Shown: one piece after another, positions 593-30,348 of the stretch
Numbering within the stretch: the first letter of the stretch is position 1
How the letters are laid out: each line of letters begins with the position of its first letter
From: an uncultured bacterium
GTDB taxonomy: Bacteria; Margulisbacteria; WOR-1; CAVSGV01
DNA length: 32,000 nt
NCBI GenBank assembly: GCA_963699255.1
Contig: OY969425.1
Coordinates: 1,738,856-1,770,855, forward strand
Direction of reading: 5' to 3'
Program-made: the position numbers and the translations under genes
The notes under the pieces: model-generated
Databases searched by the model: none
Seen by the model: only the letters and a program-made list of their open reading frames with translations
What the model was told of the DNA's origin: nothing

Positions 593-3500
593 TCAATTAT
601 TTTTTATCGCTTTCTTTCTCAAGATCACTTTACTGCCGGCCAGAACTATAATAGAATACATTCCGGCAGCTGCCCCGGAGCCATCCCACGTTTGAGAGTA
701 AACTCCCGCCTGTTGATTTTTCTGGTTCTGTGTCCATACAACATTGCCCAGAGCGTTGCAGATCGTTATCGTTACATCGCTCGTGCTTTCAAGGTTATAT
801 ACGATATTGAGATTGCCTGTAAAAGGATTCGGATAAATACTATTCAGCTTGGTTGTGGGGTAGCCCGCAATTATCCCATCGCTGTGACCAGCTAAGCTCC
901 ACAGGCCGGCTCCATCTTTGGCCTCTACATGGAAATAATATGTAACGCCTTCGGTCAGGGAAAGACCGGTCACGGTCACATCGGTATTTGTTCCGGCAGA
1001 AGTCCAGTTTATGATCTTTCCATTTTCCGGATCGGTTGGATCGGTCGATATCGTATATATATATTCTGTTACTCCTGATTCCGGGTCGGAAGAAGACCAG
1101 GCGGCATGGAACTCTGATAACGATGTGGTATATGTCCCATCATCTGTGACGACAGGCGTTGTTGGAGGCGTAGTGTCAACGGTTATCCCATCGCTGTGGA
1201 CGATGTCGCTCATCTTGCCAACTCCATTCACAGCTCTTACATGGAAATAGTAGGTTTTTCCGTTGGCCAGGTCAAGCCCTTTTGCGGTTATTTTGGTGGC
1301 ATCGGGCCCGACGGAGGTCCAGGGCAGAGCATTTTCAGCCATCCCGATCATCGGGTCATTTGGATCTGTTGATATGGCATACTCATATCCTGTTATGCCC
1401 GATTCATTATCAAAAGAAGGAGACAGAGTGGCGTCGAGCTCGGTTGAAGAGCTGGTGTATTCTCCGCTATCAGTGACAGCCGGGTCTGATGGGGGAGTGG
1501 TGTCAACAATGCCGATTTGTAAGCCGTCGCTGCTGCCGACTTCGCTCCACATGCCGGCTCCGTCTTTTGCCTTAACATGGAAATAGTAAGATTTTGTGCC
1601 GGATAAGGATAGATTATCCAGGGTTACCTGGGTATTTGTTCCGGCAGATGTCCAGGTTACGAGATTCCCGATATCCGGATCATTTGGATCGGTCGATATG
1701 GAATACATATATTCTGTCACACCTGATTCTGGATCGGAAGAAGACCAGGCTCCCTTGAGCGTGGCCGTAGGGCCGGATTTTTGTACCATGCCGTTGACAA
1801 CAGGCTTTGTAGGAGGCGTAATGTCGACTGTTATGCCGTCGCTGTGACCGGGGACGCTAAATTGGCCTGCTCCGTTCTTGGAGATCACATGGAAATAGTA
1901 AGTCTTGCCTTCCTCTAAGTTAAGGTCGGACAGGGTTATTTCGGTATCAGTTCCGGCAGATGTCCAGGGTACGATATTTTCAGGGTCCCCGATCTTCGGA
2001 TCATCCGGGTCGGTCGATACAGCATACCAATATCCTGTCACACCCGATTCATCATCTGAAGAGGACCATGTGGCATGAAGATCGGAAGATGTAGTATATT
2101 TCCCGTCGTCGGTGACATTGGGCTGTGATGGGAGTGTAGTGTCAACTTTTATCCCATCGCTGTGAACGATGTGGCTTGCCAGTCCTTCTCCATTTATGGC
2201 CTTTACATGGAAATAATAGGTTTTCCCGTTGGTCAAGTTAAGGTTGGTCGCGTTTATGTCGGTGGTATTAGGTCCGAGGGGAGTCCACTCCACGACATTG
2301 CCGGTATCCGGATCAAGCGGATCGGTAGATATTGAATATTGATATTCCTTTATTTCCGAATCCGGATCGGAAGCGGGAGACAATGCGGCATGCAGCTCGG
2401 ATGAAATGATAGTGTATACCCCGTCATCCGTTACAGCCGGGTCTGTAGGAGGAGTCGTATCCGGCGATTTAACCAGGTCTTTATAAACATTAACAAAGTT
2501 GCCTGACAGGAGCAGGGCCGCAAAACTCGCCAGAGATTGATTGTAATATAAATTCGCTACCCCTGTTTCGCTCGTATTGCCCCAGTAACCGCCGTTCGCC
2601 GCAGTCGCGTATTGAGAGAAATTGTTCTCAAATTCCGTATTAAAGGCAGACTTATAAACGGGCGATCCGCTTACCATAGCACCTGTTGCCCACATACCTG
2701 CGGTTATTTCGCTGTGCCATGCGCCCTCATTACTGGTGTAGGGAGTGCCATCCATTTTGTAAAGGATCGAATTTGCCGCTGCCGCAGCTTCGCTTCCATA
2801 TCTGCCTGTAAGGTTATTTTTCCCGTTCGTGCAATACTGGACTGCTCTCGGGTCATTGAACCAGATGGCATCAACTGCCATCATCCATGGAGTTCTTATC
2901 GCGTCGTTCCACATGTCAGCGCCATTGCTTAATGGGCCGGTAGTGCCGTACTGGCTGATCCCTCCGGTTTTGGTGTCCATCAGATCCGGGCTTAGACCGT
3001 TAGAATACCCTTGGCTTGATTGAAGGGTCGTAAAACATTGATCCACAACGGTTTTCCAGTCGTGGAAGGTTGCCTGATAGTATTGGAAGGTCTTTAGGGC
3101 AGCCGTAAAGAAATATGAAGGATTGGCCGCGTCCTTGCTAACCCAGCCGTCCCCGGGCATTAAATATTTTTTCAAGCCAACATTATCAACATCATTAGCA
3201 TATATATTATTGATAAGGTCTTGCGCTTTGCCGCTGTAATTATTGTCTGTGTCTGACCAGCAGCCGTGTTTGACAAGGGTGTCCGCGAATATCAGGGCGA
3301 GGGTGATGAAGATGTCGCCGTCAGTGGCGGATGTCGCGTCGAGAACATTATCGCCGGACTTGTCGACCGTGGCTGCGAAAAGGCCTTTACCGTCCTTATT
3401 GTGCATTTTTGCGTATGCGGCGGTCAGGATCTTATCGAAATATGTCTGGTCGCTGTTGTAAATGGCAAGAAGAAGTCCGTATCCCTGTGCTTCGGAGGTT

Positions 3501-6500
3501 GAACCTTCAGTATCAGGGGAGCCGTTGTTCCCCAATTGCGGGTTGTGGACGAGGCCCGATGTATATGCGTCGATGAAATTCGTTTTATAATTCGCCCATG
3601 TGCCGCCTATCTTGTCCTTGTAATCGCTGCCCGCTGTCGGATAGTCCGCCGAATAACACAGGAAATACAACGATCCAACCGTGTCATTCACCGTGATCCC
3701 GTCGCTGTTGCCGACATTGCTCCACATATTGGCTCCGTTCTTGGCCTTTACATGGAAGTAATAGGTTGTTCCGTTGGTCAGGGAAAGTCCGGTCTTGGTT
3801 ACTTGAGTATCTGTTTGGACAGAAGTCCAGTCAACTATCTTTCCATTCTCCGGGTCAGTTGGATCTGTTGATATGGAATACTGATATTCTGTTATGCCTG
3901 AATCCGGATCGGAAGAAGACCATGAGGCATGGAGCTGGGTTGAATAGTTCGTATATATTCCATCATCGTAGACAATAGGATCTGTAGGTGGAGTGGTGTC
4001 AACGGCAACCGTGATCCCGTCGCTGCTGCCAATATTGCTCACCAGGCCGGCCCCGTCTTTGGCTTTTACATGGAAGTAATAGGTTGTGCCATTGGTCAGG
4101 GAAAGTCCGGTCCTGGTTACTTGGGTATCTGTTTGGACAGGGGTCCAGGGTACGATGTTCCCGGTATCCGGATCGGTCGGGTCGGTGGATATGGAATACT
4201 GATATTCTGTAACACCTGATTCCGGATCTGAAGAAGACCATGAAGCGTGGAGCTGGGATAATGAGCCTGTAGATACTCCATCATCGATAACAACAGGATC
4301 TGTAGGAGGTGTGGTGTCAACGGTTATCCCGTCGCTGCTGCCGACATTGCTCCACTGGCCGGCTCCGTCTAACGCCTTTATATGGAAATAGTAGGTTTGG
4401 CCATTGGTTAAATTAAGGTTGCTTGCGGTTATGTCGGTATCAGTGCCGGCGGGAGTCCAGGGCAAAATGTTCCCGGTATCCGGATCGGTAGGATCGGTGG
4501 ATATGGAATACTGATATTCTGTAACGCCTGATTCCGGGTCTGAAGAAGAGTATGTGACATGGAGCTGGGATAAAGATGTAGCATATTTCCCATCATCATT
4601 GACAATAGGATCTGTAGGAGGTGTATCGTCAACCATTATTCCATCGCTGTTGGCAACATTGCTCCACAGGCCGGCTCCGTTCTTGGCCTTTACATGGAAA
4701 TAGTAGGTTTGGCCATTGGTTAAATTAAGGTTGCTTGCGGTTATTTCGGTATTCGTATCGGCGGTAGTCCAGGGTACGATGTTCCCGATAGTTGGATCGG
4801 TAGGATCGGTCGATATGGAATACTGATATTCTATTACGCCTGATTCCTTATCGATCGAAGGAGACCATGTGGCATGGAGCTGGGATAAAGAAAGGGTGTA
4901 TACCCCATCATCGGTGACGGCCGGATCTGAAGGGGGAGTTGTATCTGCCATCATAACCACATCTTTGTAAACATTGACAAAGTTCCCTGACAGGAGCAGA
5001 GCTGCAAAACTCGCCAGAGATTGATTGTAATAGTATTTTCCTACTCCGGGCCAGTTGCCCCAGTAACCGCCGTTCGCCGCGGTCGCATTCTGGGAAAAAT
5101 TGTTCTCAAATTCTGTATTGAAGGCGGACTGATAAACTGGCGATCCGCTTACCATAGCGCCGGTTGCCCACATACCTTCGGTCAATTCATTGTGGAATGC
5201 GCCGTCGCCATCTCCGTATGGAGTGCCGTTCATGTCGTAAAGAATTGCCTTTGACGCTGCCGTTGTTTCATCGCCATAGGAGCATGTAAGGAAAATCCTC
5301 CCGTTCTGCAAATACTCATCGGCTCTTTTGTCATTGAACCATATCTTATCAAGTGTCATCATCCATGGACCCCTTATCCCGTCGTACCACATATGATAGC
5401 CATTATCTGATGCACCTGCTGGGCCGGTATGGCCGTATTGGCTTATCCCTCCGGCTCTGGTGCACATATCCGGGGTTAAGCCGTTGGAATATCCGTCGGT
5501 CGATTGAAGGGTCGTGTAGCATTGATCGACAACGGGTTTCCAGTCGTGGAAGTTCGCCTGGTAGAATTGGAAGGTCTTTAAGGCAGCCGTGAAGAAATAT
5601 GAAGGATTGGCGGCATCCTTGCCGGTCCAACCATCCCCGGGCATCAGATACTGCCCGCCATCAACGTCGTTCGCGTATATGTTGTCGATAAGGTTCTGCG
5701 CTTTGCTGCCGTAATCATTGCCTGTGTCTGACCAGCAGCCTTGTTTGATAAGTGTATCCGCAAATATCAGGGCAAGGGTGATGAAGATATCGCCGTCAGT
5801 GGTGGATGTTGCGTCGAGAACATTATCGCCGGACATGTCAACCGTGGATGCAAAGAGGCCTTTTCCGTCCTTATCGTGCATTTTTGCGTATGCGGCGGTC
5901 AGGATCTTATCGAAATAGGTCTGGTCGCTATTATAAATGGCAAGAAGAAGTCCGTAGCCTTGCGCTTCGGAGGTTGAGCCTTCAGTATCAGGGGACCCAT
6001 TGTCTCCCAATTGCGGGTTGTGGACCAGGCCCGATGCATATGCGTCAATGAAATTCGTTTTATAATTCGCCCATGTGCCGCCTATCTTGTCCTTGTAATC
6101 GCTGCCTGCTGTCGGATAGTTCGCCGAATAACACAGGTAATACAATGGTGTTGTTATGTTATTCGCCGTGATCCCGTCGCTGTGGCCGACATTGCTCCAT
6201 AGATCGGATCCGTTCTTGGCCTTTACATGGAAGTAATAGGTAGTTCCATTGGTCAGTGTGAGCCCGGTTGCGGTCACCTGGGCATCAGTCCCTGTAGAAG
6301 TCCAGGGCACGATGTTCCCGGTATCCGGATCGGTCGGATCGGTCGATATGGAATACTGATATTCTGCAATGCCCGAATCCGGATCGGAAGAAGACCATGA
6401 GGCATGGAGCTGGGTTGCAGAGCTGGTAGTTGCCCCATCATCGGTAACGACAGGATCTGTAGGGGGTGTCAGATCAAAATTCGTAGTGATCCCATCGCTG

Positions 6501-8056
6501 CTAACGACATTACTCCACAGGCCGGCTCCGTTCTTGGCCTTTACATGGAAATAATAGGTCGTTCCGTTGGTCAGGGAAAGTCCGGTCTTGGTCACTTGAG
6601 TATCTGTTTGGACAGAAGTCCAGGGGACTATGTTCCCTGTGTCCGGATCGGTCGGATCGGTCGATATTGAATACTGATATTCTGCAATGCCTGATTCCGG
6701 GTCGGAAGAAGACCATGTAGCATGGAGCTGGCTTGGAGATGCTGTATTTGCTCCATCGTCAGTAACAATAGGGTCTGTAGGTGGAGTTGTATCCGGCGGC
6801 ACCATAAGGTCGTTGTAAACATTAACAAGGTTCCCGGACATGAGCAAAGCGGCAAAACTCGCCAGAGATTGATTGTAATATTCACTTCCTTCCCCGGACC
6901 AGTTGCCGTTGCCCCAGTATCCGCCGGTTGCCGCGGTCGCGTATTGGGAGAAATTGTTTTCAAATTCCGCATTGAAGGCGGATTTGGTATTTGGCCGTCC
7001 ACTTCCCATAGCGCCGGTCCCCCACATACCCGCGGTCATTTCACTGTGCCATGCGCCGTCACCATTGGTATATGGAGTTCCATTCATGTCATATAAAATT
7101 GCATTTGACGCTGCCGATTGTGCTGCCGAGTTGTCATCAGTATCAGTACCTGCAAGAAAGGTCATTCCGTTCTGGCAATACTGGACCGCTCTTGGATCTT
7201 TGAACCAGATGGCATCAAGTGCCATCATCCATGGAGTCCTTATCCCGTCGTACCACATATGATAGCCATTGTCTGATGGGTATGATGGGCCGGTAGTGCC
7301 ATATTGGCTTATCCCTCCGGCTCTTGTGCACAGATCCGGGCTCAGGCCGTATAAGTAGCCGTCGTATCCATCGGGATTCACCGCTTGAAGTGTCATATAG
7401 CATTGATCCACAACGGGATCCCAGTCATGGAAGTTTTTCTGGTAGTTTTTAAAGGTTTTTAAGGCAGCCGTGAAGAAGTAGGAAGGATTGGCCGCATCCT
7501 TGCTGCTCCATCCATCACCGGGCATAAGATATTTTCCGTTATCAACGTCGTTAGCGTATATGTTGTCGATAAGGTCTTGCGCTTTGCTGTCGTAATTGTT
7601 GCTTGTATCCGACCAGTAGCCTTTTTGTACAAGGATATCCGCGAATATCAGGGCGAGGGTGATGAAGGTGTCGCCGTCAGTGGCAGAGGCATAGCTGGAA
7701 TTATTCAGGTTACCGTTTATATCGACTACGGAGGCGAACAACCCTTTTCCGCTACTGCTGTTATCATGCATTTTCGCGTAGACAGCGGTCAGTATCTTAT
7801 CGAAATAGATCTGGTCATTATTGTAAAGGGCTAGAAGAAGTCCATAGCCCTGTCCTTCTGAGGTCGCGCCTTGGGTCTCATCGAAGCCGACAGTGGCCGG
7901 ATCATCCGGCAACTGCGGGTTGTGGACCAGGCCGGTGGTATAGGCGTCAATGAAATTCTTCTTATAATTCGCCCATGTGCCGCTTACCTTGTTTTTATAA
8001 TCGCTGCCCGCGGACGGGTAGCTAGCCGAATAAGGCAGAAAATACAATGGACCCAT
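593..8056 (-). CDS. Giant multidomain glycoside hydrolase: three GH8-like catalytic domains, eleven FN3-like modules, one C-terminal YPNPF sorting/FlgD-Ig-like domain (2,487 aa)
   Basis: Longest ORF in the window. The start is fixed by an in-frame TAA 9 nt upstream of the ATG and an AAGGGGG Shine-Dalgarno 4 nt upstream. GH8 hallmarks occur three times: TSE(G/A)QGYGLLLA, (A/T)TDGD-FITLALIFA (close to the GH8 signature A-[ST]-D-[AG]-D-x2-[IM]-A) and WYDGIR-PWMM. There are eleven (T/S)YYFH(V/I)-type modules (consensus TYYFHVKAKNGAG). The tail reads IYPNPFTGNLNIVY...QTWDGSGAAAGMYSIIV. Confidence 0.9.
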   Translation of the reverse strand: MGPLYFLPYSASYPSAGSDYKNKVSGTWANYKKNFIDAYTTGLVHNPQLPDDPATVGFDETQGATSEGQGYGLLLALYNNDQIYFDKILTAVYAKMHDNSSSGKGLFASVVDINGNLNNSSYASATDGDTFITLALIFADILVQKGYWSDTSNNYDSKAQDLIDNIYANDVDNGKYLMPGDGWSSKDAANPSYFFTAALKTFKNYQKNFHDWDPVVDQCYMTLQAVNPDGYDGYLYGLSPDLCTRAGGISQYGTTGPSYPSDNGYHMWYDGIRTPWMMALDAIWFKDPRAVQYCQNGMTFLAGTDTDDNSAAQSAASNAILYDMNGTPYTNGDGAWHSEMTAGMWGTGAMGSGRPNTKSAFNAEFENNFSQYATAATGGYWGNGNWSGEGSEYYNQSLASFAALLMSGNLVNVYNDLMVPPDTTPPTDPIVTDDGANTASPSQLHATWSSSDPESGIAEYQYSISTDPTDPDTGNIVPWTSVQTDTQVTKTGLSLTNGTTYYFHVKAKNGAGLWSNVVSSDGITTNFDLTPPTDPVVTDDGATTSSATQLHASWSSSDPDSGIAEYQYSISTDPTDPDTGNIVPWTSTGTDAQVTATGLTLTNGTTYYFHVKAKNGSDLWSNVGHSDGITANNITTPLYYLCYSANYPTAGSDYKDKIGGTWANYKTNFIDAYASGLVHNPQLGDNGSPDTEGSTSEAQGYGLLLAIYNSDQTYFDKILTAAYAKMHDKDGKGLFASTVDMSGDNVLDATSTTDGDIFITLALIFADTLIKQGCWSDTGNDYGSKAQNLIDNIYANDVDGGQYLMPGDGWTGKDAANPSYFFTAALKTFQFYQANFHDWKPVVDQCYTTLQSTDGYSNGLTPDMCTRAGGISQYGHTGPAGASDNGYHMWYDGIRGPWMMTLDKIWFNDKRADEYLQNGRIFLTCSYGDETTAASKAILYDMNGTPYGDGDGAFHNELTEGMWATGAMVSGSPVYQSAFNTEFENNFSQNATAANGGYWGNWPGVGKYYYNQSLASFAALLLSGNFVNVYKDVVMMADTTPPSDPAVTDDGVYTLSLSQLHATWSPSIDKESGVIEYQYSISTDPTDPTIGNIVPWTTADTNTEITASNLNLTNGQTYYFHVKAKNGAGLWSNVANSDGIMVDDTPPTDPIVNDDGKYATSLSQLHVTYSSSDPESGVTEYQYSISTDPTDPDTGNILPWTPAGTDTDITASNLNLTNGQTYYFHIKALDGAGQWSNVGSSDGITVDTTPPTDPVVIDDGVSTGSLSQLHASWSSSDPESGVTEYQYSISTDPTDPDTGNIVPWTPVQTDTQVTRTGLSLTNGTTYYFHVKAKDGAGLVSNIGSSDGITVAVDTTPPTDPIVYDDGIYTNYSTQLHASWSSSDPDSGITEYQYSISTDPTDPENGKIVDWTSVQTDTQVTKTGLSLTNGTTYYFHVKAKNGANMWSNVGNSDGITVNDTVGSLYFLCYSADYPTAGSDYKDKIGGTWANYKTNFIDAYTSGLVHNPQLGNNGSPDTEGSTSEAQGYGLLLAIYNSDQTYFDKILTAAYAKMHNKDGKGLFAATVDKSGDNVLDATSATDGDIFITLALIFADTLVKHGCWSDTDNNYSGKAQDLINNIYANDVDNVGLKKYLMPGDGWVSKDAANPSYFFTAALKTFQYYQATFHDWKTVVDQCFTTLQSSQGYSNGLSPDLMDTKTGGISQYGTTGPLSNGADMWNDAIRTPWMMAVDAIWFNDPRAVQYCTNGKNNLTGRYGSEAAAAANSILYKMDGTPYTSNEGAWHSEITAGMWATGAMVSGSPVYKSAFNTEFENNFSQYATAANGGYWGNTSETGVANLYYNQSLASFAALLLSGNFVNVYKDLVKSPDTTPPTDPAVTDDGVYTIISSELHAALSPASDPDSEIKEYQYSISTDPLDPDTGNVVEWTPLGPNTTDINATNLNLTNGKTYYFHVKAINGEGLASHIVHSDGIKVDTTLPSQPNVTDDGKYTTSSDLHATWSSSDDESGVTGYWYAVSTDPDDPKIGDPENIVPWTSAGTDTEITLSDLNLEEGKTYYFHVISKNGAGQFSVPGHSDGITVDITPPTKPVVNGMVQKSGPTATLKGAWSSSDPESGVTEYMYSISTDPNDPDIGNLVTWTSAGTNTQVTLDNLSLSGTKSYYFHVKAKDGAGMWSEVGSSDGLQIGIVDTTPPSDPAVTDSGEYTSSSTELDATLSPSFDNESGITGYEYAISTDPNDPMIGMAENALPWTSVGPDATKITAKGLDLANGKTYYFHVRAVNGVGKMSDIVHSDGITVDTTPPTTPVVTDDGTYTTSLSEFHAAWSSSDPESGVTEYIYTISTDPTDPENGKIINWTSAGTNTDVTVTGLSLTEGVTYYFHVEAKDGAGLWSLAGHSDGIIAGYPTTKLNSIYPNPFTGNLNIVYNLESTSDVTITICNALGNVVWTQNQKNQQAGVYSQTWDGSGAAAGMYSIIVLAGSKVILRKKAIKNN
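596..860 (-). other. C-terminal sorting-type beta-sandwich domain (T9SS type-A CTD / FlgD-Ig-like), approximate bounds
   Basis: YPNPF motif, alternating hydrophobic strands, a WDG...G.Y motif and a basic C-terminal end. Assigned from remembered family consensus, not a search. Confidence 0.6.
860..2470 (-). repeat. Five tandem ~100-aa FN3-like modules (modules 7-11), approximate bounds
   Basis: Repeated pattern TTPP(T/S)DP-VTDDG...LHA.WS.SD.ESG..EY.Y.ISTDP.DP..G....WTS.G..T..T...L.L..G.TYYFHV.A..GAG..S..G.SDGI.VD. Confidence 0.75.
2470..3680 (-). other. GH8-like catalytic domain, copy 3 (approximate bounds)
   Basis: Begins GSLYFLCYSADYPTAGSDYKDK. Contains STSEAQGYGLLLAIYNSDQ, SATDGDIFITLALIFAD and WNDAIRTPWMMAVD. 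Ends NFVNVYKDLVKSPD. Confidence 0.75.
3680..4950 (-). repeat. Four tandem FN3-like modules (modules 3-6), approximate bounds
   Basis: Same module consensus as 860-2470, with four TYYFH(V/I)KA motifs. Confidence 0.75.
4950..6150 (-). other. GH8-like catalytic domain, copy 2 (approximate bounds)
   Basis: Begins TPLYYLCYSANYPTAGSDYKDK. Contains STSEAQGYGLLLAIYNSDQ, STTDGDIFITLALIFAD and WYDGIRGPWMMTLD. Ends NFVNVYKDVVMMAD. Confidence 0.75.
6150..6800 (-). repeat. Two tandem FN3-like modules (modules 1-2), approximate bounds
   Basis: Same module consensus. The second module is nearly identical in DNA to the last module of the neighbouring paralog. Confidence 0.75.
6800..8056 (-). other. GH8-like catalytic domain, copy 1 (approximate bounds)
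   Basis: MGPLYFLPYSASYPSAGSDYKNK..., ATSEGQGYGLLLALYNNDQ, SATDGDTFITLALIFAD, WYDGIRTPWMMALD. Ends NLVNVYNDLMVPPD. Confidence 0.8.
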
Positions 8057-19952: not shown

Positions 19953-19974
19953 AAGAAGCGGTTAATTTAGAAAA

Positions 19975-20047
19975 TGGACCTGAGCGGGATCGAACCGCTG
20001 ACCTCCTGCTTGCAAAGCAGGCGTTCTCCCAACTGAACTACAGGCCC
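19975..20047 (-). tRNA. tRNA-Ala (anticodon UGC)
   Basis: The reverse complement GGGCCTGTAGTTCAGTTGGGAGAACGCCTGCTTTGCAAGCAGGAGGTCAGCGGTTCGATCCCGCTCAGGTCCA folds by hand into a cloverleaf. It has the G3:U70 identity pair and anticodon loop CTTTGCAAG. No encoded CCA. Confidence 0.9.
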
Positions 20048-20196
20048 ATGCCCCTGCGGGGAATTACCAATCACCAAATTCCAGATCCCAAGCAAATCCC
20101 AAATTCAAAATCCCAATTCCCAATTTGACATTGGGATTTTGTCATTCATTTGACATTTGTCATTGGTCATTTGTCATTCTCCGCTTCCTGGCGGAG
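20048..20196 (-). repeat. 149-nt tRNA-Ile/tRNA-Ala spacer filled with heptamer arrays and an 11-bp hairpin
   Basis: Plus strand reads ...TTTGTCA TTGGTCA TTTGTCA (20156-20176) and CCCAAAT/CCCAATT-type words (20086-20125). Perfect stem AAAATCCCAAT (20107-20117) / ATTGGGATTTT (20130-20140). Confidence 0.8.
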
Positions 20197-20273
20197 TGGT
20201 GGGCCACATTGGAATCGAACCAATGACCTTACCCTTATCAGGGGTACGCTCTAGCCAACTGAGCTAGTGGCCC
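20197..20273 (-). tRNA. tRNA-Ile (anticodon GAU), CCA encoded
   Basis: The reverse complement GGGCCACTAGCTCAGTTGGCTAGAGCGTACCCCTGATAAGGGTAAGGTCATTGGTTCGATTCCAATGTGGCCCACCA gives a 7/4/5/5 cloverleaf by hand with anticodon loop CTGATAA. Confidence 0.9.
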
Positions 20274-20358
20274 AAATTTCAGGTAAATTATTTTATCAGA
20301 TTTGATTGATAATTCAAACCTTATATAATAGAATCAGCCGAACGAAAGGGGGAAGATC

Positions 20359-20766
20359 ATGAAAAAAATTATCATCGGAGGCTTGCTTGCGGGCGCTTTC
20401 ATCCTGCTTATGGGTATGCTGTTCGGCGCGATGTCCGCTGAAATGTACAAGCTGTCACCGAAGGTCTTCTGGAAGCCGATGGGAGGGGACTGGTTCACGA
20501 GGGTCCTGATATACGATTTTGCCTCGGGCCTGATATTTGCCTGGGTATTCTCGATCGTGAAAGGATCAATCCCCGGTCCGGGGCTGGCAAAAGGCCTCAT
20601 GTTCGGGATCATGATGTTCCTGATAGGACCGTTCCACTCGGTATGGATGGCCTATCTCGTTATAGCTATCAGGGCAAAGCTGCTGGCCGTGTGGATGTTG
20701 AACGGCCTTGTGAACTACGTGTTTTCAGGCCTCATTTTTGAGCTGATCGACGAAAAAATATCCTGA
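20359..20766 (+). CDS. Hypothetical polytopic membrane protein (135 aa)
   Basis: Four hydrophobic segments. AAGGGGGAAG SD lies just upstream of the ATG. Confidence 0.7.
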   Translation: MKKIIIGGLLAGAFILLMGMLFGAMSAEMYKLSPKVFWKPMGGDWFTRVLIYDFASGLIFAWVFSIVKGSIPGPGLAKGLMFGIMMFLIGPFHSVWMAYLVIAIRAKLLAVWMLNGLVNYVFSGLIFELIDEKIS

Positions 20767-20775
20767 AATAAGCGC

Positions 20776-20803
20776 TTGACAAAGTCAGGCCAGATAGTAT
20801 AAT
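20776..20803 (+). promoter_or_regulatory. Consensus sigma-70-type promoter (TTGACA - 16 nt - TATAAT) upstream of the 23S rRNA
   Basis: TTGACA at 20776-20781 and TATAAT at 20798-20803, read directly. Confidence 0.7.
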
Positions 20804-20864
20804 TACCAGGCTTTATGCAGGAAAACTCAACTTAAAGTTTTTCTAACGCATCAGGTAGGCGAAC

Positions 20865-20889
20865 AAACGCACTTGATGTGCGTTTTTTT
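20865..20889 (+). terminator. Intrinsic-terminator-like hairpin plus T-run inside the 23S leader
   Basis: AAACGCAC / ttgat / GTGCGTTT followed by TTTTT (7-8 bp stem, T-run 20883-20889), about 80 nt downstream of the promoter. Confidence 0.5.
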
Positions 20890-20918
20890 GTCTTTATTAT
20901 GGGCCGAATTGCGGCCGT

Positions 20919-20939
20919 GATCTTTGAAAATTAAATAGG
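20919..20939 (+). promoter_or_regulatory. rRNA leader box GATCTTTGAAAATTAAATAGG
   Basis: Near-identical to 31907-31927. Resembles the TCTTTGAAAACTAAACA leader motif remembered from Bacillus rrn operons. Confidence 0.55.
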
Positions 20940-21034
20940 TTATTTTCACCGGGCGAGCCGCCCAGGTGGGAATGACCATGTCAAAGTAAGAACAAAGCGT
21001 CTTAGCGAACGATAGTTTGTATAATTAGCGGAAT

Positions 21035-23976
<2,942 letters not shown>

Positions 23977-24184
23977 TACCGTTAATTATACACGCTCTCC
24001 TTCGGGGGGCGAAAATTGATATCGATCACTAATGATAGTTCTTTGACATATATAGTTCCTTGCAAGCCGGACTTCATAAGAATGTAATAAGATGAAGCGA
24101 GGGGAGTAGGTCCGACGAGAAGTCGGACCGTTGAGGGGCTTTGCCCCTCAAGGCCGGAACGTAATAAATTAGTTATTTGCAAAT

Positions 24185-24299
24185 GTGGGTGACCATACCG
24201 GGAGTGTCCCACCTGTTCCCATTCCGAACACAGCAGTGAAATCTCCCAGGGCCGATGGTAGTTACTGGGCAACTGGTAGTGAGAGTAGGACGTCGCCCC
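24185..24299 (+). rRNA. rrf: 5S ribosomal RNA
   Basis: GTGGGTGACCATACCGGGAG...CCCATTCCGAACACAGCAGTGAAA...GAGAGTAGGACGTCGCCC. The ends pair as helix I. Boundaries are good to about 2 nt. Confidence 0.9.
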
Positions 24300-24344
24300 T
24301 TTTTCCTCCTTCGCCCCTAAAGGGCTTCGGAGGACTCGTGAAAG

Positions 24345-24402: not shown

Positions 24403-24912
24403 TTAGAGAATGCTCCTTTGCTCCTGAATAGCGTCAAGAGTATTTCTGAAAAGATCCAAATGATCAAATATCCACTGCGCCAATATTTTGCTTCCATAAT
24501 CAAGCAGCTTTATCTTTCCATTGTGCATACCATAATTCTCTGCAAATGATAATGTGTGAATTTCAGAAAAAAAGATTTTATCAGTCAATTGATTTCTTAT
24601 GAACGACAGTTCATTTTTTGAAAACGCTTGAATAGGCAAAGCGGTATCTTGAATGTTAACTGCACCGAAAACGGAAAACCTTGTTGGTACTACAGCTTCA
24701 TATAATTTCTTTGACCACTTATTTTCGAACCGATTACTCCAAACGCCTTCCAAAGATTTATATGGAGCTTGACCGGCGCAAGGACGTTCATACCCTCCCG
24801 ACCATAAATGTTTAATATCTTGGCGCAACATTTTTATGTGTATTCTTGGGAGCTTTATTGTAGTTCTTTTGCTTACTATTGCGACCCTTGTTTCTCCATA
24901 TGCGATTCTCAT
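24403..24912 (-). CDS. Hypothetical protein (169 aa), A+T-rich, with protein-kinase-like loop spacing
   Basis: Clean ORF. IHTLSFAENYGMHNGKIKLLDYG has the H..(x)....N-x11-D(F/Y)G spacing of small Bud32/RIO/Kdo-type kinases. TTIKLPR and NRFENKW are possible Lys / alpha-C Glu positions. GATATAAT lies 4 nt upstream of the ATG. Confidence 0.6.
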   Translation of the reverse strand: MRIAYGETRVAIVSKRTTIKLPRIHIKMLRQDIKHLWSGGYERPCAGQAPYKSLEGVWSNRFENKWSKKLYEAVVPTRFSVFGAVNIQDTALPIQAFSKNELSFIRNQLTDKIFFSEIHTLSFAENYGMHNGKIKLLDYGSKILAQWIFDHLDLFRNTLDAIQEQRSIL

Positions 24913-24955: not shown

Positions 24956-26239
24956 TCAAAACCTTTTATATAGCCCCGAAGCTACCATCCCGGTTTTGCT
25001 GTTAAGCACGGTGTTCATTATTCCCGCGCGCTCCACGGTGAATTCTCCGAAGCGGTCATTTATGTCATCTATGGCCCTCATGACCTTTTTTCTGTTCTCC
25101 TTTGATTCAAATATGCTTATCTGGTCCAGGTTGTGGCGCAGGCCCGAGAGGGTGACGCCCACGAAGCGCGCGCCGTCCATCTTGCCCAGTTCGCGGTCAA
25201 GTATTGTCTCGGCTTCCTTGAAAATGTCGTAGCCGTCATCGATGTATTCCGGCAGCTTTTTCTGCCTGCCCCAGAAGTTGAATTCCCCCCCGACACTCCC
25301 GACACTGCGGTCGGGACAGGTTCGGTCGGGGCAAGCGATCCCGATCGTCAGATGCACGATATTGCCCTGATAATTATCCCTTCTCAGCCTCCTGCCCACC
25401 TGTTCGCTTAATCGCAGGAGATAGCCCTTGATCTCATTCATGTCCCTTGTGAATTTCGGCAAAGTGTATGAGTGTCCCATCGACTTGGCATCTGACTCGT
25501 GCCAGTGGGGAAGGACAGGAGAGTCGTCTTTCCCTTGTCCCATATGCCAAAGGTGTTCCCCGCATACGACCCCGAAGCGCATGACCAGCCTGTCGCGGGG
25601 ATACCGGTTCAGCTGGCCTATTGTGTGGACACCCAATTCGGCAAGATGGGACTCAAGTTTTCTGCCAATCCCGCAGAGCTTGGCTACGGGAACGTCTTTT
25701 ATCTTCTCCGGAATATCCTCCGGACGCAGGATTATCAATGCATCCGGTTTTTTAAGCTCGCCGGCAAGTTTAGCCATCAGCTTATTCGGGCCTATCCCTA
25801 TGTTGCAGGTAAGATTAAATTTCTCCCTTATCCATTTTTTAATATTCTGGGCTATTACGATCTCCCCGCATCTTGCATCTCGCGTCTCCCATCTCTCTTT
25901 TGTGTCCGTCACATCGATCCATGCTTCATCTATCGAGAATATCTCCACGAGGTCGGAATAAGTTGTCAGGTGCTTCATTATGGCTTTTGAGGTGGAGATG
26001 TATTTCGGCATGTCGCCTACTACTATTATCAGTTCCGGGCAGATCTTTTTGGCTTCCCAGGTGGACATGGCGTTCTTTATTCCGCGGGCTTTGGCTTCGT
26101 AGCTTGCGGCCGCGACGACGGAGGTCTTCTTTATCCCGCCGCCCACCGCTATCGGCTTTCCCCGAAGGGCGGGATTCGCCGCCTGCTCGACGCTGGCGAA
26201 GAAGGCGTTCATATCTATATGCAAGATAGTTCGGTTCAT
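24956..26239 (-). CDS. dinB: DNA polymerase IV (Y-family)
   Basis: MNRTILHIDMNAFFASVEQAANPALRGKPIAVGG, SIDEAWIDVT and little-finger region. 427 aa. Confidence 0.92.
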   Translation of the reverse strand: MNRTILHIDMNAFFASVEQAANPALRGKPIAVGGGIKKTSVVAAASYEAKARGIKNAMSTWEAKKICPELIIVVGDMPKYISTSKAIMKHLTTYSDLVEIFSIDEAWIDVTDTKERWETRDARCGEIVIAQNIKKWIREKFNLTCNIGIGPNKLMAKLAGELKKPDALIILRPEDIPEKIKDVPVAKLCGIGRKLESHLAELGVHTIGQLNRYPRDRLVMRFGVVCGEHLWHMGQGKDDSPVLPHWHESDAKSMGHSYTLPKFTRDMNEIKGYLLRLSEQVGRRLRRDNYQGNIVHLTIGIACPDRTCPDRSVGSVGGEFNFWGRQKKLPEYIDDGYDIFKEAETILDRELGKMDGARFVGVTLSGLRHNLDQISIFESKENRKKVMRAIDDINDRFGEFTVERAGIMNTVLNSKTGMVASGLYKRF

Positions 26240-26487
26240 ATCGATATGCAGGTCTTATTGATCTTCCAGATCAGCCTTTTCAGGTTCAGCGATAATTCAT
26301 AAGTATTCGTGTCGTCCGAAACCGAGAAGAGCATCAGCTTTTCTATGCCGTCGTGGTCCTCCCACTGGTAATTCACCGTCTTGATGTCGTACTTCCGGTT
26401 GTCATAGTAGAACCATTTGGGAAGGATGTGTCCGCCCTGGAAGACAGCGCCGACTTTTATGATCTTATCTATGTTAGTTGGTTCCAT
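26236..26487 (-). CDS. Hypothetical 83-aa protein translationally coupled to dinB
   Basis: ATGA stop/start overlap with dinB at 26236-26239. AAGG SD 7 nt upstream. Beta-strand-rich sequence with no motif I can name. Confidence 0.65.
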   Translation of the reverse strand: MEPTNIDKIIKVGAVFQGGHILPKWFYYDNRKYDIKTVNYQWEDHDGIEKLMLFSVSDDTNTYELSLNLKRLIWKINKTCISI

Positions 26488-26501
26488 GGTTTAACCTTGC
26501 A

Positions 26502-26623
26502 GTATATCGGAGTATCAGGGTATCAGTAGGAAGAGTATCAGAAGATCGGGATATCAGGATGGTTTTACCTGATGTTCTGATGCTCTGATAACCTGCCTAC
26601 TGATCTTCTGATGTCCTGATATG
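26502..26623. repeat. Mirrored word arrays: six (T/G)ATC(A/G)G words on the left arm, six CTGAT words on the right arm
   Basis: Left words at 26505, 26513, 26521, 26536, 26544, 26552. Right CTGAT at 26569, 26577, 26585, 26600, 26608, 26616. Spacings 8/8/15/8/8 on both arms, symmetric about ~26563. Central stem ATCAGG (26553-58) / CCTGAT (26568-73). Confidence 0.85.
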
Positions 26624-26652
26624 CTTCTTAAGCGTTCGAATAAGATTCTTCG

Positions 26653-27234
26653 TTAAAACTTTCTAAAAAGGCCTTTAACTCTACCCTGTATAGCGACGTC
26701 CTTAACGTATATCGGCTTCATTGAGCTGTTGGCAGGCTCGAGCCGGATGCGGGTCTTCTCGCGGTACATGCGCTTGAGCGTCGCGGCTGTGCCGTCCACG
26801 AGAGCCACCACGACCTCGCCGTCGTCGGCGGTATCGGTTTTTTCTATGACGATGAAGTCGCCGCTGACTATGTGGTCTTCTATCATGGAATTGCCCCTTA
26901 CCTGGAGGACGTAGCAGGGCTTTTTGGATACGAGGGTCCTGGGGACCTCTATTTCTTCCTGCTGCTCCATCACTTCTATGGGCATGCCTGCGGCGATGAA
27001 CCCAAAGAAGGGAAGGGTCACTGTGGCTTTAAGGCCGGGTATCCTTAAAGCACGTGACCCTTTCTCCCTTTCAATGAGCCCTTGTTCTTCGAGTGAGTCC
27101 AGGTATTTCTGGCCGGCGCGGGGGGAGGAGAAGCCGAATTGCTTGCATACTTCCCTGATGCTCGGCGCGAACCCTTTTTCGATGATGTGGTCTTTGAGGA
27201 ACTCGAGGATCTGTTTTTGCGTATCTAATGTCAT
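26653..27234 (-). CDS. lexA: LexA repressor
   Basis: Winged-helix N-terminus (IREVCKQFGFSSPRAGQKYLDSLEEQGLIERE), Ala-Gly cleavage site in FIAAGMPIE, catalytic Ser in RGNSM and Lys in LKRM. Confidence 0.92.
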   Translation of the reverse strand: MTLDTQKQILEFLKDHIIEKGFAPSIREVCKQFGFSSPRAGQKYLDSLEEQGLIEREKGSRALRIPGLKATVTLPFFGFIAAGMPIEVMEQQEEIEVPRTLVSKKPCYVLQVRGNSMIEDHIVSGDFIVIEKTDTADDGEVVVALVDGTAATLKRMYREKTRIRLEPANSSMKPIYVKDVAIQGRVKGLFRKF

Positions 27235-27293: not shown

Positions 27294-27311
27294 GGTATAC
27301 AAGTGTATACC
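27294..27311. promoter_or_regulatory. Candidate LexA operator GGTATACAAGTGTATACC (7-bp arms, 4-nt spacer)
   Basis: Perfect palindrome 60-77 nt upstream of the lexA ATG. A TTGACA -35 hexamer (minus strand, 27324-27329) lies 12 nt upstream, so the palindrome covers the -10 region. The geometry matches GAAC-N4-GTTC / GTAC-N4-GTAC type SOS boxes. Confidence 0.55.
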
Positions 27312-27345
27312 ATATCGGGAATCTGTCAAGGGGGAATTTAAAGGA

Positions 27346-28557
27346 TTATGAGGGAAGATGAAAAGCAAGAACGGCCAGCTTAATTTCCCTATTATTATCT
27401 CCGATTAAATGAAAAGTATAATTGAACCAGGATTCACTTTCTTTATTATTAAGTTTGATATAACAGTCGTGTTTTGGAGTTGTTTCTTCAATAGATTTTA
27501 GAACTGAAGAAAATTCCTTATTTCTCACAAATAATATCAGTGCTGTCTTAGAATCACGCCAAGTTAAATACCCTAATAGTTGTGTTATTCCTTCGAGATA
27601 GGCTTTTGACCCTTCCCAAAACTTGCATTCTGCGACAAAGATGTTTGAATCTTGATAACGAATTAAAATATCGGTTTTCCCGGATTTATTGAATGTTTCC
27701 CCCGTTATCGAACTGTCTTTTATGCGGGGCTCTAAATGGACCAATATTTGATCTCGGAGGGCCTCCTCATCTTTGTTAAGATAAGTTGAAGGATAACGCT
27801 CAAACGATTTCCCCATAATATTAATTGCATGCAGTATTTCATCGTAGGTTGATTGGTCGATAGAGTATTCTTGAACGCCACTCCTAATGGCGGGCTTATT
27901 AACGGTAATCTTTTTAATAATATGTGGGATTGGCACTGTATAGCTCTTTGTGCTATTTGTCTTAACCCCTCCGAGAGCGGCAAGGGTTTTATTCTTATTG
28001 AGGATTTTTTGTTTAATCGCTTTAAATATTCCGCCAGCATTTGCCTTAAGCTTAGAATTGTAATCTTGAACATTCTTTGTTAGATGTCCGAGTTGTTCAT
28101 TTAATTTATTTATATTGTTTTGTGCTTCAGCTTTAATTTGGTCGGGCTCATCTGAAAATATTTGGATTTCAAAGCAAATACGATTCCCCCTGATTTCTAA
28201 TGGCATGGTCCACAAGAGACGCGGATTAGGAATGTAATGTATTAAATCGACATTCCCGCTATAAGGCATACTATATACATATACTGAACGAGGATATTTT
28301 TTGCCCGGATAAACGTTAAAATTAAAAGGAAAGTATTCTGCTGGAATCATTTTTTCATAAGTAGAAACTTCAAAGCTTTCGAAATCTATGGTAGGTAAGT
28401 CGATACTAAAATCATCAGCTAGATAACCAATGAAATCCTCTTCGTTGACGTTTAGAATATAATCTTCCGATTCTTGGCTGATCCTAGATAGTATTCTTTG
28501 ATCATTTCCCAGAAAATATTGTTGTATGTCTTCTCCTGCAAATGCTTTGAAGGTCAT
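27346..28557 (-). CDS. Hypothetical 403-aa protein with C-terminal PD-(D/E)XK (restriction-endonuclease-like) motif; A+T-rich
   Basis: Clean ORF. The C-terminal third reads EEALRDQILVHLE...GKTDILIRYQDSNIFVAECKFWEG (helix Glu, then D-x14-E-x-K). N-terminal ~270 aa unrecognised, with a central coiled-coil-like stretch. TATATAAT and an AAGG SD lie upstream. Confidence 0.7.
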   Translation of the reverse strand: MTFKAFAGEDIQQYFLGNDQRILSRISQESEDYILNVNEEDFIGYLADDFSIDLPTIDFESFEVSTYEKMIPAEYFPFNFNVYPGKKYPRSVYVYSMPYSGNVDLIHYIPNPRLLWTMPLEIRGNRICFEIQIFSDEPDQIKAEAQNNINKLNEQLGHLTKNVQDYNSKLKANAGGIFKAIKQKILNKNKTLAALGGVKTNSTKSYTVPIPHIIKKITVNKPAIRSGVQEYSIDQSTYDEILHAINIMGKSFERYPSTYLNKDEEALRDQILVHLEPRIKDSSITGETFNKSGKTDILIRYQDSNIFVAECKFWEGSKAYLEGITQLLGYLTWRDSKTALILFVRNKEFSSVLKSIEETTPKHDCYIKLNNKESESWFNYTFHLIGDNNREIKLAVLAFHLPS

Positions 28558-28654
28558 AATATTTACCTTGTATGAATTATATACTATTATTGACTTGTCT
28601 TTAAATCATTTATTAATATATTGCAGAATGCACTTTGAACTCTTCCTTTCTGGG

Positions 28655-28745
28655 GAGGCGAAGGAAGGGTGATAGCAGAAGTCAGAAGGCAGAAGTAGGG
28701 GGCGCATTTCTAACTTCAAACTTCTAATTTCTTACTTTTTATTCT
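28655..28745. repeat. Mirrored heptamer arrays: purine arm (..GTGATAG CAGAAGT CAGAAGG CAGAAGT AGGGGGC) then pyrimidine arm (GCATTTC TAACTTC AAACTTC TAATTTC TTACTTT TTATTCT)
   Basis: Read directly in the divergent intergenic region between the 403-aa gene and the ORF6N gene. The arms are imperfectly complementary (CAGAAGT vs ACTTC). Confidence 0.75.
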
Positions 28746-28878
28746 CTGGGCTCTTTCCCGTGTCTAAACCCACTGCTAGTGTCGAAGAAAATGACATCAA
28801 AAGACCCATCTTAAGAAGAATCCAGTTGCACTATTCAGGCAAGAAAATTGCTGTTACTTCTTATATAAGGAGGACTAT

Positions 28879-29514
28879 ATGAATAAATTAGCTAAGGTAA
28901 GCAGCATCAAATCATTAATATATGTAATAAGGGGCCAAAAAGTTATGCTGGATTTTGATCTGGGACGACTTTATCAGGTCCCTGTCAAAAGACTAAATGA
29001 ACAGGTAAAAAGGAATATATCCCGCTTCCCGGCGGACTTCATGTTGCAGCTTACTCAGGAAGAGACAGAGAATTTGCGGTGCCAATTTGGTACCACAAAT
29101 TACTTAAGAGGACGAGGAAACTTGAAGTCACAAATTGTGACTTCAAGTTCAAGGTCGCAAAATGCGACCTTGAAGCGGGGAGGAAACTTAAAGTATCTGC
29201 CATATGCTTTTACCCGCAACGGCGTTAACATGCTGGCGGCGGTCTTGAGGTCCGAAATAGCTATTCAGCGGTCGATATTTATAATGCGAGCCTTTTCCGC
29301 CCTTGAGGAAGCTATCGGCAGGCGAAAAAATAAGATCCTTTCAAGCCCGGAGGCCATCAGAGAACTTTCGATCCATTCAAAAGCCATAATGCGGCTTTTT
29401 CAAGAGGGCAGGATAAAGGATGCGAGGATATCCAGAATCGAAGATTCTGCAGAAAGAGATCACGAAGCTTATCCAGAAGATAATTATCACTTCAATCGAA
29501 AAAGATTGATATAA
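28879..29514 (+). CDS. ORF6N-domain (KilA-N-related) DNA-binding protein
   Basis: IYVIRGQKVMLDFDLGRLYQVPVKRLNEQVKRNISRFPADFMLQLTQEE...YLPYAFTRNGVNMLAAVLRSEIAIQRSIFIMRAF matches the remembered ORF6N consensus. AAGGAGG SD. Confidence 0.85.
   Translation: MNKLAKVSSIKSLIYVIRGQKVMLDFDLGRLYQVPVKRLNEQVKRNISRFPADFMLQLTQEETENLRCQFGTTNYLRGRGNLKSQIVTSSSRSQNATLKRGGNLKYLPYAFTRNGVNMLAAVLRSEIAIQRSIFIMRAFSALEEAIGRRKNKILSSPEAIRELSIHSKAIMRLFQEGRIKDARISRIEDSAERDHEAYPEDNYHFNRKRLI
29078..29174 (+). repeat. Three tandem palindromes inside the ORF6N coding sequence
   Basis: 29078-29094 GGTGCCAA-t-TTGGTACC (one G.T). 29121-29147 CTTGAAGTCACAA-a-TTGTGACTTCAAG (perfect 13-bp arms). 29148-29174 TTCAAGGTCGCA-aaa-TGCGACCTTGAA (perfect 12-bp arms). 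They encode RCQFGT, LKSQIVTS and RSQNATL. Confidence 0.9.
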
Positions 29515-29627: not shown

Positions 29628-29897
29628 CTACTTCTTGCAGCAGTCCTTTACCGCACAAGTTGCGGCTTTAGAACCCGTAGGGCACTGTTTACTGCAATTC
29701 TTTGCGCATGCATTTTTGCATGACTTGGCCTTGCAGCAGCAGTCCTTCGAGCCCTTGCACGGGGCAGGGCAGCAGCACTCGTGGGACGCGATACAGCATT
29801 CGCTGTCGTACTTCGAAGCCGCCATAGCCGCGAGCGGAACGCTCATCGTACCCAGGAACATGAACAGAGCCAATACAGTAACTATCTTCTTAAACAT
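29628..29897 (-). CDS. Exported cysteine/lysine-rich small protein (89 aa; metallothionein-like composition)
   Basis: GGAGG SD 8 nt upstream. Sec-type signal MFKKIVTVLALFMFLGTMSVPLAAMA/AS. The mature ~60 aa contain 16 Cys in CC, CCC and C-x3-C runs with many Lys. A terminator follows. Confidence 0.75.
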   Translation of the reverse strand: MFKKIVTVLALFMFLGTMSVPLAAMAASKYDSECCIASHECCCPAPCKGSKDCCCKAKSCKNACAKNCSKQCPTGSKAATCAVKDCCKK

Positions 29898-29959
29898 GAT
29901 AATACCTCCATTTAATGGATAAAATTGAGACGGGACGGATCAAACAGGGAATTATGAGG

Positions 29960-30316
29960 TCAGACGAAATCCTTGCGGGAGACGAATTGCCTTGTGAACT
30001 TGCACTCGTTCAGCTTTGACATCAACCGGGGATCTTTAAAACATACCTCGCGGTCCTGGTGGACCGTTACCTTAACGGCCGAAATGGCCGGGATGCTTGT
30101 CGAGTCGGAAATAGAGACAGGGTCTGTTTGACCGGGATTTGCCGATGCGATAGCACTTATATTACCCGCGGACTTAAGGCAGCAGCATTCGCAGGCGGGA
30201 TCCTGTGAATGGCATCCGGAATTGTTTGAACAGAATGCGGGGCTGCAGCAAACAAGGCCATTCATGGAAACGGCCAGAACGAGAATGAGTAAACAGATCG
30301 ATTTGTTCTTCACCAT
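29960..30316 (-). CDS. Exported cysteine-rich protein (118 aa from the ATG at 30316)
   Basis: MVKNKSICLLILVLAVSMNG signal-like N-terminus, then VCCSPAFCSNNSGCHSQDPACECCC, sharing the CC...ECCC pattern with the downstream gene. TGTGATATAAT lies 7 nt upstream of this ATG. The listed start at 30343 adds a non-signal-like MFKCDIIYV. Confidence 0.6.
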   Translation of the reverse strand: MVKNKSICLLILVLAVSMNGLVCCSPAFCSNNSGCHSQDPACECCCLKSAGNISAIASANPGQTDPVSISDSTSIPAISAVKVTVHQDREVCFKDPRLMSKLNECKFTRQFVSRKDFV

Positions 30317-30323
30317 AACGTAT

Positions 30324-30334
30324 ATTATATCACA
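30324..30334 (-). promoter_or_regulatory. TGTGATATAAT extended -10-like element, 7 nt upstream of the 30316 ATG
   Basis: Minus strand reads agTGTGATATAATatacgttATG, the identical 11-mer to the one upstream of tldD. No SD. Confidence 0.4.
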
Positions 30335-30348
30335 CTTGAACACTGATT

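Follow-up and report, generated by a model that had tools for sequence, protein, structure and literature searches.

A horizontally acquired candidate defence nuclease of the PDC-S54 family next to lexA in an uncultured WOR-1 bacterium

The 32,000-nucleotide (nt) stretch of contig OY969425.1 that was analysed here, hereafter the window, comes from an uncultured bacterium of the WOR-1 lineage (assembly GCA_963699255.1) and carries an A+T-rich gene for a 403-residue protein immediately upstream of lexA. Judged from its sequence, the gene is an intact, horizontally acquired member of PDC-S54, a catalogued family of candidate defence genes. We consider it reasonably probable that its product is a stand-alone anti-phage nuclease, built from an N-terminal module, a linker and a C-terminal PD-(D/E)XK domain, and that it acts outside the SOS response. 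An earlier note on this DNA had described an orphan gene with a nuclease-like C-terminus, serving either defence or the response to DNA damage. The open reading frame (ORF) and all three peptide stretches quoted in that note are present in the translation. The idea of a stand-alone defence nuclease holds as far as computation goes, on account of an invariant motif, the topology of the core, weak and mutually consistent Foldseek and Pfam matches, the PDC-S54 assignment, the lack of a partner gene and the location of some homologues in type I restriction-modification (R-M) operons. The orphan status and the link to DNA damage had to be given up, as detailed below.

The protein matches the PADLOC model PDLC05036 (PDC-S54) over nearly its entire length, with residues 3-402 aligned to positions 5-407 of the 410-position profile (E = 1.5e-128, 427.8 bits), and the only other PADLOC match is a weak one to PbeC. 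Besides having this dedicated model, the family comprises more than 4,380 homologue clusters at E ≤ 1e-3 in a large protein collection and is encoded in at least 585 species genomes, so that the gene can no longer be called an orphan. Homologues are found in both bacteria and archaea, including Acidobacteriota, Bacteroidota, Pseudomonadota, Bacillota, Cyanobacteriota, Planctomycetota, the candidate phyla radiation (CPR) and Nitrososphaeria. The best 120 homologue clusters share 43-54% identity with the window protein over nearly the full length, and their names, where given, are all "hypothetical". The family is present on 23 plasmids and is rare in phages (2 of 50,697 records). No NCBIfam model matches the protein, and searches of PDB sequences, whether made with the protein alone or with a profile of its family, returned only coiled-coil noise. 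PDC-S54 is one of 145 "phage defence candidates" (PDCs) that were proposed on the principle of guilt-by-embedding, a set that goes back to genes sitting inside BREX, DISARM and type I R-M systems (Payne et al. 2024, bioRxiv 10.1101/2024.01.29.577857). The window protein resembles the family in its full-length profile match and its single-gene architecture, and some homologues lie inside type I R-M operons, the kind of setting through which the candidates were found. It differs only by small deletions within the linker region and by its A+T-rich, lexA-adjacent location, whereas embedding in BREX, DISARM or type I R-M systems is not seen in this window.

The assignment of the C-terminal domain to the PD-(D/E)XK nucleases can be regarded as largely secure. 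An AlphaFold2 model of the full-length protein, built from 30 homologues, has a predicted local distance difference test (pLDDT) score of 83.8, with values mostly above 85 in this domain. Its secondary structure elements follow the order helix 264-278, strand 282-290, strand 293-301, strand 304-313, helix 317-330 and strand 337-344, that is, the alpha-beta-beta-beta-alpha-beta order of the nuclease core, for which the earlier note had proposed to look. The aspartate and the E-x-K motif pointed out in that note exist as D296, located on the second strand, and E310-C-K312, located on the third; all three residues, together with Q326 and Y330, are invariant in the 30 homologues. Foldseek matched the domain to the PD-(D/E)XK nuclease of Halogranum tailed virus 1 (probability 1.00, E = 5e-3), to a viral Mrr-domain protein (probability 0.97, E = 0.067) and to McrC (7vsr_M; probability 0.90, E = 0.022), as well as to SduA, SfsA, DrdV and several type II enzymes. 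Acetyl-CoA carboxylases dominated the Foldseek matches of the full-length model, and were set aside as spurious long alignments of high root-mean-square deviation (rmsd). At the profile level, phrog_9664 matches residues 250-380 (E = 9e-8), and Pfam DUF234, which we take to belong to the PD-(D/E)XK clan, gives sub-threshold matches (E = 0.009-0.07) to the same C-terminal region in 15 of the 30 family members. The domain is preceded by a linker that is predicted to be disordered (pLDDT < 50 at residues 196-230), in which L195, G196, P209 and P222 are nonetheless invariant in the family and consensus motifs, LGVPIKK and TYAIPTP, can be discerned. The nuclease module also occurs in another architecture: a 344-residue hypothetical protein from the Escherichia coli IncHI2 plasmid NZ_ON960341.1 (L102:4653-5687), encoded ahead of a 1,020-residue DEAD/DEAH helicase, shares only residues 166-403 with the window protein, at 32% identity, which corresponds to the end of the long helix, the linker and the nuclease domain.

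The N-terminal module consists of an alpha/beta domain followed by a single long helix of 57 residues (138-194). When residues 1-200 were modelled alone, AlphaFold2 returned a pLDDT of 94.5 and a predicted template modelling score (pTM) of 0.83. A Foldseek search of the PDB with this model gave no credible neighbour (best E 0.28, probability 0.30); the COMMD-like structure 9q6c_A, at probability 0.30, was rejected as a neighbour and kept as a lead only. A profile of the module detects 3,255 representative proteins among 1.84 billion at E ≤ 1e-3, and 265 at E ≤ 1e-30. We examined the architectures of the best 150 of the 3,255, of which 67 are at least 330 residues long. The nuclease domain is present in 51 of these and absent from 16. 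In place of it, twelve of the 16 carry a C-terminal TIR domain and another has a class III nucleotidyl cyclase domain; one more may be cyclase-like, as judged by eye only, and the remaining two have a repeat-rich tail. The TIR-containing protein P0169, which has dozens of relatives of 355-380 residues that align over nearly the whole length, finds AbTIR in a PDB search at E = 2.5e-45 and has the precomputed Pfam assignments PF01582 and PF13676. The cyclase-containing protein P0249 finds Ma1120 in the same type of search at E = 8e-12. In pairwise comparisons, residues 3-196 of the window protein are 30% identical to P0169 (E = 4e-30) and residues 6-207 are 27% identical to P0249 (E = 1e-26), and in both cases the similarity ends at or just beyond the end of the long helix. 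One TIR variant adjoins a GmrSD-HNH enzyme and an EcoRI-type methylase. On this comparison of sequences, the N-terminal module is portable and also fused to TIR and class III cyclase domains, a result that is new in this analysis.

An N-terminal module that is shared by several exchangeable effectors is a typical trait of immune proteins. Dimers are the common active form of PD-(D/E)XK nucleases, the active sites of class III cyclases span the two subunits of a dimer, and bacterial TIR NADases work via self-association. Because dimerization or higher-order assembly is thus a common mode of action of all three types of effector, the architectures suggest, by analogy, that the N-terminal module and its helix may provide regulated self-association. 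A bolder proposal, which we advance tentatively and hold to be somewhat less probable than its negation, is that the module defines an undescribed superfamily of single-chain immune proteins, in which a single module for sensing and assembly is joined to any of several interchangeable, proximity-activated effectors, namely PD-(D/E)XK nucleases, AbTIR-type TIR NADases and class III cyclases. The sister architectures also strengthen the case for a defence role of PDC-S54 itself, which we find plausible and rate as rather likely.

Several described systems invite comparison. PD-(D/E)XK nucleases such as McrC, Mrr-domain proteins and Pfam DUF234 share with the window protein the core, the aspartate on strand 2 and the E-x-K motif on strand 3, with Foldseek probabilities of 0.90-1.00, but no Pfam or NCBIfam nuclease model passes its threshold and the fold matches only reach E-values of 5e-3 to 0.1. 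Unlike McrC, the window gene has no McrB partner. Shedu (SduA, PDB 8ps4) follows the same proposed logic, in which a variable N-terminal region controls a C-terminal PD-(D/E)XK nuclease in a single-protein defence system. Membership in Shedu was nevertheless rejected, since neither the PADLOC Shedu models nor Pfam DUF4263 match, and the Foldseek alignment to 8ps4_A has a probability of 0.41 and an rmsd of 18 Å. Membership in the Mrr/type IV restriction group is not supported either: Pfam finds no Mrr_cat domain, and the N-terminal domain matches no known modification-reader fold. Likewise, a Cap4-type CBASS effector is not indicated, as no SAVED or CBASS model matches and no cyclase gene is adjacent in the window or recurrent in the 80 homologue loci described below. 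The three layouts named in the earlier note (Mrr, Shedu and Cap4) are thus not borne out at the level of families. The AbTIR-type single-chain TIR NADase defence proteins, represented by P0169, have the same N-terminal module, followed by an AbTIR-like TIR domain where the window protein has its nuclease; the window protein has no TIR domain, and the two are best described as sister architectures in separate families.

The genomic context of the homologues was analysed in 80 loci, for which 1,066 flanking ORFs were clustered all-against-all. No neighbour family is common to more than 8 of the 80 loci. Because the homologues have no conserved neighbour, we regard the gene as a stand-alone unit. 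About 80% of the immediate neighbours are on the same strand as the homologue. Type I R-M genes are present in 8 loci, 7 of which have two or more of the components. In L035 and L039, HsdS and HsdR enclose the gene on one strand (HsdS - PDC-S54 - Abi_C - ... - HsdR), and in L001, L029 and L034 it is appended or close to type I genes. The other immediate neighbours include TIR, ResIII and nSTAND proteins, integrases and housekeeping genes. An integrase adjoins the homologue in 7 loci, and primase/VapE-type element genes do so in Flavobacteriia. As a separate observation, an Abi_C protein directly follows the PDC-S54 gene in L035 (6461-7228) and L039 (9193-9996), and Abi_C is an immediate neighbour in 3 of the 80 loci, which may reflect a recurrent pairing.

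With 429 G+C in 1,212 nt (35.4%), the gene stands out from lexA (53%) and from the 1.77-Mb genome (47.5%), in which only 1.6% of the windows of gene size are equally A+T-rich; the hand counts in the earlier note (19/60 G+C at 27361-27420 and 33/60 at 26701-26760, within lexA) are exact. The gene is present in a single copy in its own genome and was not found in 60 relatives from the same family, order or class. Nucleotide similarity to the syntenic loci of relatives in blastn is missing over approximately 27355-28837, resuming at about 27354/27364 on one side and at 28838 on the other. The relatives keep the order 23S-5S / dinB / 83-residue ORF / lexA, and the slot upstream of lexA is occupied by other genes of no known function (for example in G002 and G001), including one for a Fic/DOC protein. 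Around the insert, a search for mobile-element boundaries found only short repeats of chance level. Taken together, a G+C content within the lowest 1.6%, the absence from all 60 relatives, the window-specific DNA, the rarity in phages and the occurrence on 23 plasmids argue for horizontal acquisition, and the adjacency to lexA is best explained as an accidental insertion into a variable slot.

As the earlier note stated, the next gene on the same strand is lexA, but the gap between the two measures 111 nt rather than 112 nt. This gap contains the lexA promoter, whose -10 element is overlapped by the perfect palindrome GGTATACAAGTGTATACC. Six relatives have the same box 5' of lexA, with identical spacing to TTGACA. 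In 8 of the 20 relatives searched, all with a close lexA homologue, the pattern GTATAC-N4-GTATAC occurs 1-5 times per genome, and it occurs at two sites in the genome itself, versus no occurrence of the reversed control pattern in all genomes but one. Because of the shared box and these genome counts, GTATAC-N4-GTATAC is very probably the LexA operator of this lineage; to our knowledge, it is not among the described LexA boxes. With only 1-5 sites per genome, the LexA regulon of the lineage seems to be tiny. The second strict copy in the genome, GGTATACAAGTGTATACT, has the same TTGACA-N13 spacing as at lexA and precedes, by 40 nt, a type II R-M operon of low G+C content (G000:C1:952117-954512; L100:1117-3512), which comprises genes for an N6_N4 methyltransferase of 311 residues and a BglII-like endonuclease of 181 residues and then a second ORF6N gene. 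This operon may be an SOS-controlled R-M system. A third operator-like site, at 1447506, is inside a coding sequence and was discarded.

The alternative closest to the earlier note deserves hardly any credence; in this reading, the gene product would be a DNA-damage effector under SOS control, its gene being co-regulated or co-transcribed with lexA. The reading could draw on the shared strand, the short gap, in which no terminator-like site was found, and the operator at the type II R-M operon, which implies that a defence operon may come under SOS control in this organism. However, the region has a single operator, which is located downstream of the PDC-S54 gene, within the lexA promoter, and no LexA-type palindrome with up to three mismatches is present upstream of the gene (28558-28878). 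Moreover, a search beside the homologues for lexA, dinB, the 83-residue ORF and ORF6N yielded, in all 80 loci, one weak S24 protein, one ORF6N and no dinB, so the adjacency to lexA is not conserved, and the slot itself is variable among the relatives, none of which has the gene. The label of a DNA-damage effector is unsupported for these reasons, and we reject a link between the gene and the SOS regulon. A housekeeping or accessory nuclease of DNA repair or recombination is also very improbable. The Q...Y motif after ExK also occurs in RecB/Cas4-type repair nucleases with PD-(D/E)XK domains, which would fit the invariant Q326 and Y330 and the position beside lexA-dinB, but the 60 relatives lacking the gene still keep lexA-dinB, the family is patchy across all phyla, and no repair genes recur beside its members.

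Two further readings are unlikely to a similar degree, though less so than the preceding two. One is a restriction enzyme that is constitutively active and type IV-like (modification-dependent) or otherwise specific for a sequence or structure, and whose N-terminal domain would read a DNA feature directly, with no triggered assembly. McrC, Mrr-domain and type II/IIG enzymes are indeed among the best fold matches of the C-terminal domain, most loci have no paired methyltransferase, as expected for a type IV enzyme, and the gene is often on the same strand as R-M operons. A pure DNA reader is nevertheless a less natural partner for the TIR and cyclase domains to which the module is also fused, as these do not act on DNA, and the N-terminal domain is unlike any known DNA-binding or modified-base-reading fold. 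The other, which we likewise doubt, is a selfish or mobile-element nuclease that serves competition between plasmids or islands, addiction, or the processing of the element's own DNA. Although the carriage on plasmids, the integrases and element genes beside some homologues, the sporadic distribution and the foreign composition would all be in keeping with such a role, the window contains no integrase, transposase, repeat boundary or partner antitoxin, the 80 loci reveal no conserved partner, and both the embedding in R-M operons and the TIR-fused siblings point to immunity.

The stand-alone defence nuclease remains the reading that we favour, and its mechanism might be envisaged as follows. 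A 1.5-kb A+T-rich cassette with a single gene would have been acquired horizontally into the variable slot just upstream of the lexA promoter, where the gene would act alone and be transcribed from its own promoter. The N-terminal module would sense an infection cue and/or drive self-association, thereby bringing the effector domains together. The nuclease would then cut DNA in a metal-dependent manner, and this cleavage would either restrict the invader or abort the infection. Several points weigh against this reading. Pfam returns nothing above threshold for the protein, including no nuclease model, and the structural matches to nucleases are weak, with a best Foldseek E-value of 5e-3. A sensing or oligomerization role for an N-terminal module that has no structural neighbour is pure inference on our part. 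Most of the homologue loci have no recognizable defence neighbour, and some of the neighbours are housekeeping genes. Finally, the name PDC-S54 appears in no searchable paper, nor in the supplements of the PDC paper, the authors of which themselves call the 145 candidates untested (10.1101/2024.01.29.577857), and PDC-S54 is absent from the PDCs assayed in a later study (10.1101/2024.09.26.614923).

Table 1. Coordinates of the PDC-S54 gene, its predicted domains and the adjacent regulatory features in the window
Feature	Position	Strand	Basis or remark
Complete PDC-S54-family gene, 403 residues plus stop codon	27346..28557	-	ORF list, translation, PADLOC PDLC05036 match
N-terminal module, residues 1-196: alpha/beta domain (1-135) and long helix (138-194)	27970..28557	-	AlphaFold2, profile search
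Linker, residues 197-234, predicted disordered, with family-conserved motifs	27856..27969	-	AlphaFold2 and alignment
C-terminal PD-(D/E)XK-type nuclease domain (predicted), residues 235-403	27349..27855	-	AlphaFold2, Foldseek
Putative catalytic signature codons: D296 (27670-27672), E310 (27628-27630), K312 (27622-27624)	27622..27672	-	Codon positions checked
Q326 and Y330 codons	27568-27582	-	After the catalytic signature
Candidate promoter of the gene, TTTAAA-18-TATAAT, 19 nt 5' of ATG	28576..28605	-	Consensus scan, 10/12 matches; a consensus pattern match only
lexA promoter, TTGACA-16-TACACT, with perfect palindrome GGTATACAAGTGTATACC (27294-27311)	27294..27329	-	Located in the gap that separates the gene from lexA
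Window-specific low-G+C single-gene insert	27355..28837	.	blastn against syntenic loci of relatives

A number of other features were noted in the surroundings of the gene. The adjacent ORF6N gene (28879-29514, plus strand) matches PADLOC PDC-S05 at E = 3.8e-49, in the N-terminal part of the profile only; a representative of PDC-S05 protected E. coli (10.1101/2024.09.26.614923). The earlier note had called this gene phage-associated; given its conservation in relatives at 79% and 56% identity, it is not recent phage cargo. A second window-specific ORF of low G+C content (24403-24912, minus strand; 169 residues, 36.9% G+C) is located between the 5S rRNA gene and dinB. Its sole match is a weak one to phrog_4301 (E = 2.8e-5), and the corresponding slot holds other ORFs of unnamed families in relative G002. 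The 83-residue ORF between lexA and dinB (26236-26487, minus strand) overlaps the start of dinB, is 44-77% identical to its counterparts in relatives and matches no family; possibly it belongs to the lexA-dinB operon as a so far unannotated gene. Between it and lexA lies an imperfect 58-nt inverted repeat (26501-26625; 72% complementary) with GTATCAG-like units. The rRNA region (19974-24301) is unusual in its arrangement, with 23S and 5S genes on the plus strand and tRNA-Ile and tRNA-Ala genes just upstream on the minus strand, and no 16S gene in the window. In relative G006 (L097), the lexA promoter directly follows the 3' end of a 16S rRNA gene. Relative G001 has two copies of lexA, one of which contains an in-frame TAA (L095, G001:C5, 3721-5453), and a 365-residue ORF of no known family is located between this copy and the 83-residue ORF. 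The window further contains two Cys-rich small ORFs of 89 and 127 residues with no family match (29628-30343, minus strand) and an ORF of 2,487 residues (593-8056, minus strand).

For the annotation of this genome, our analysis means that the gene is to be described as a PDC-S54-type candidate defence nuclease and not as an SOS gene. The value of this annotation is modest, because the candidate family had been catalogued before and gains just one further copy. As PDC-S54 is widespread, with thousands of clusters in bacteria and archaea, on chromosomes as well as plasmids, a single phage-challenge experiment would characterize a large family. The N-terminal module combines a confidently predicted fold unlike any solved structure with reuse in TIR and cyclase proteins, and hence offers a testable model of swappable effectors and a handle on the trigger. 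If the superfamily proposal were true, the defence family in question would be wider than PDC-S54, unified in its mechanism and marked by a new sensor fold, and PDC-S54 would be no more than its largest branch.

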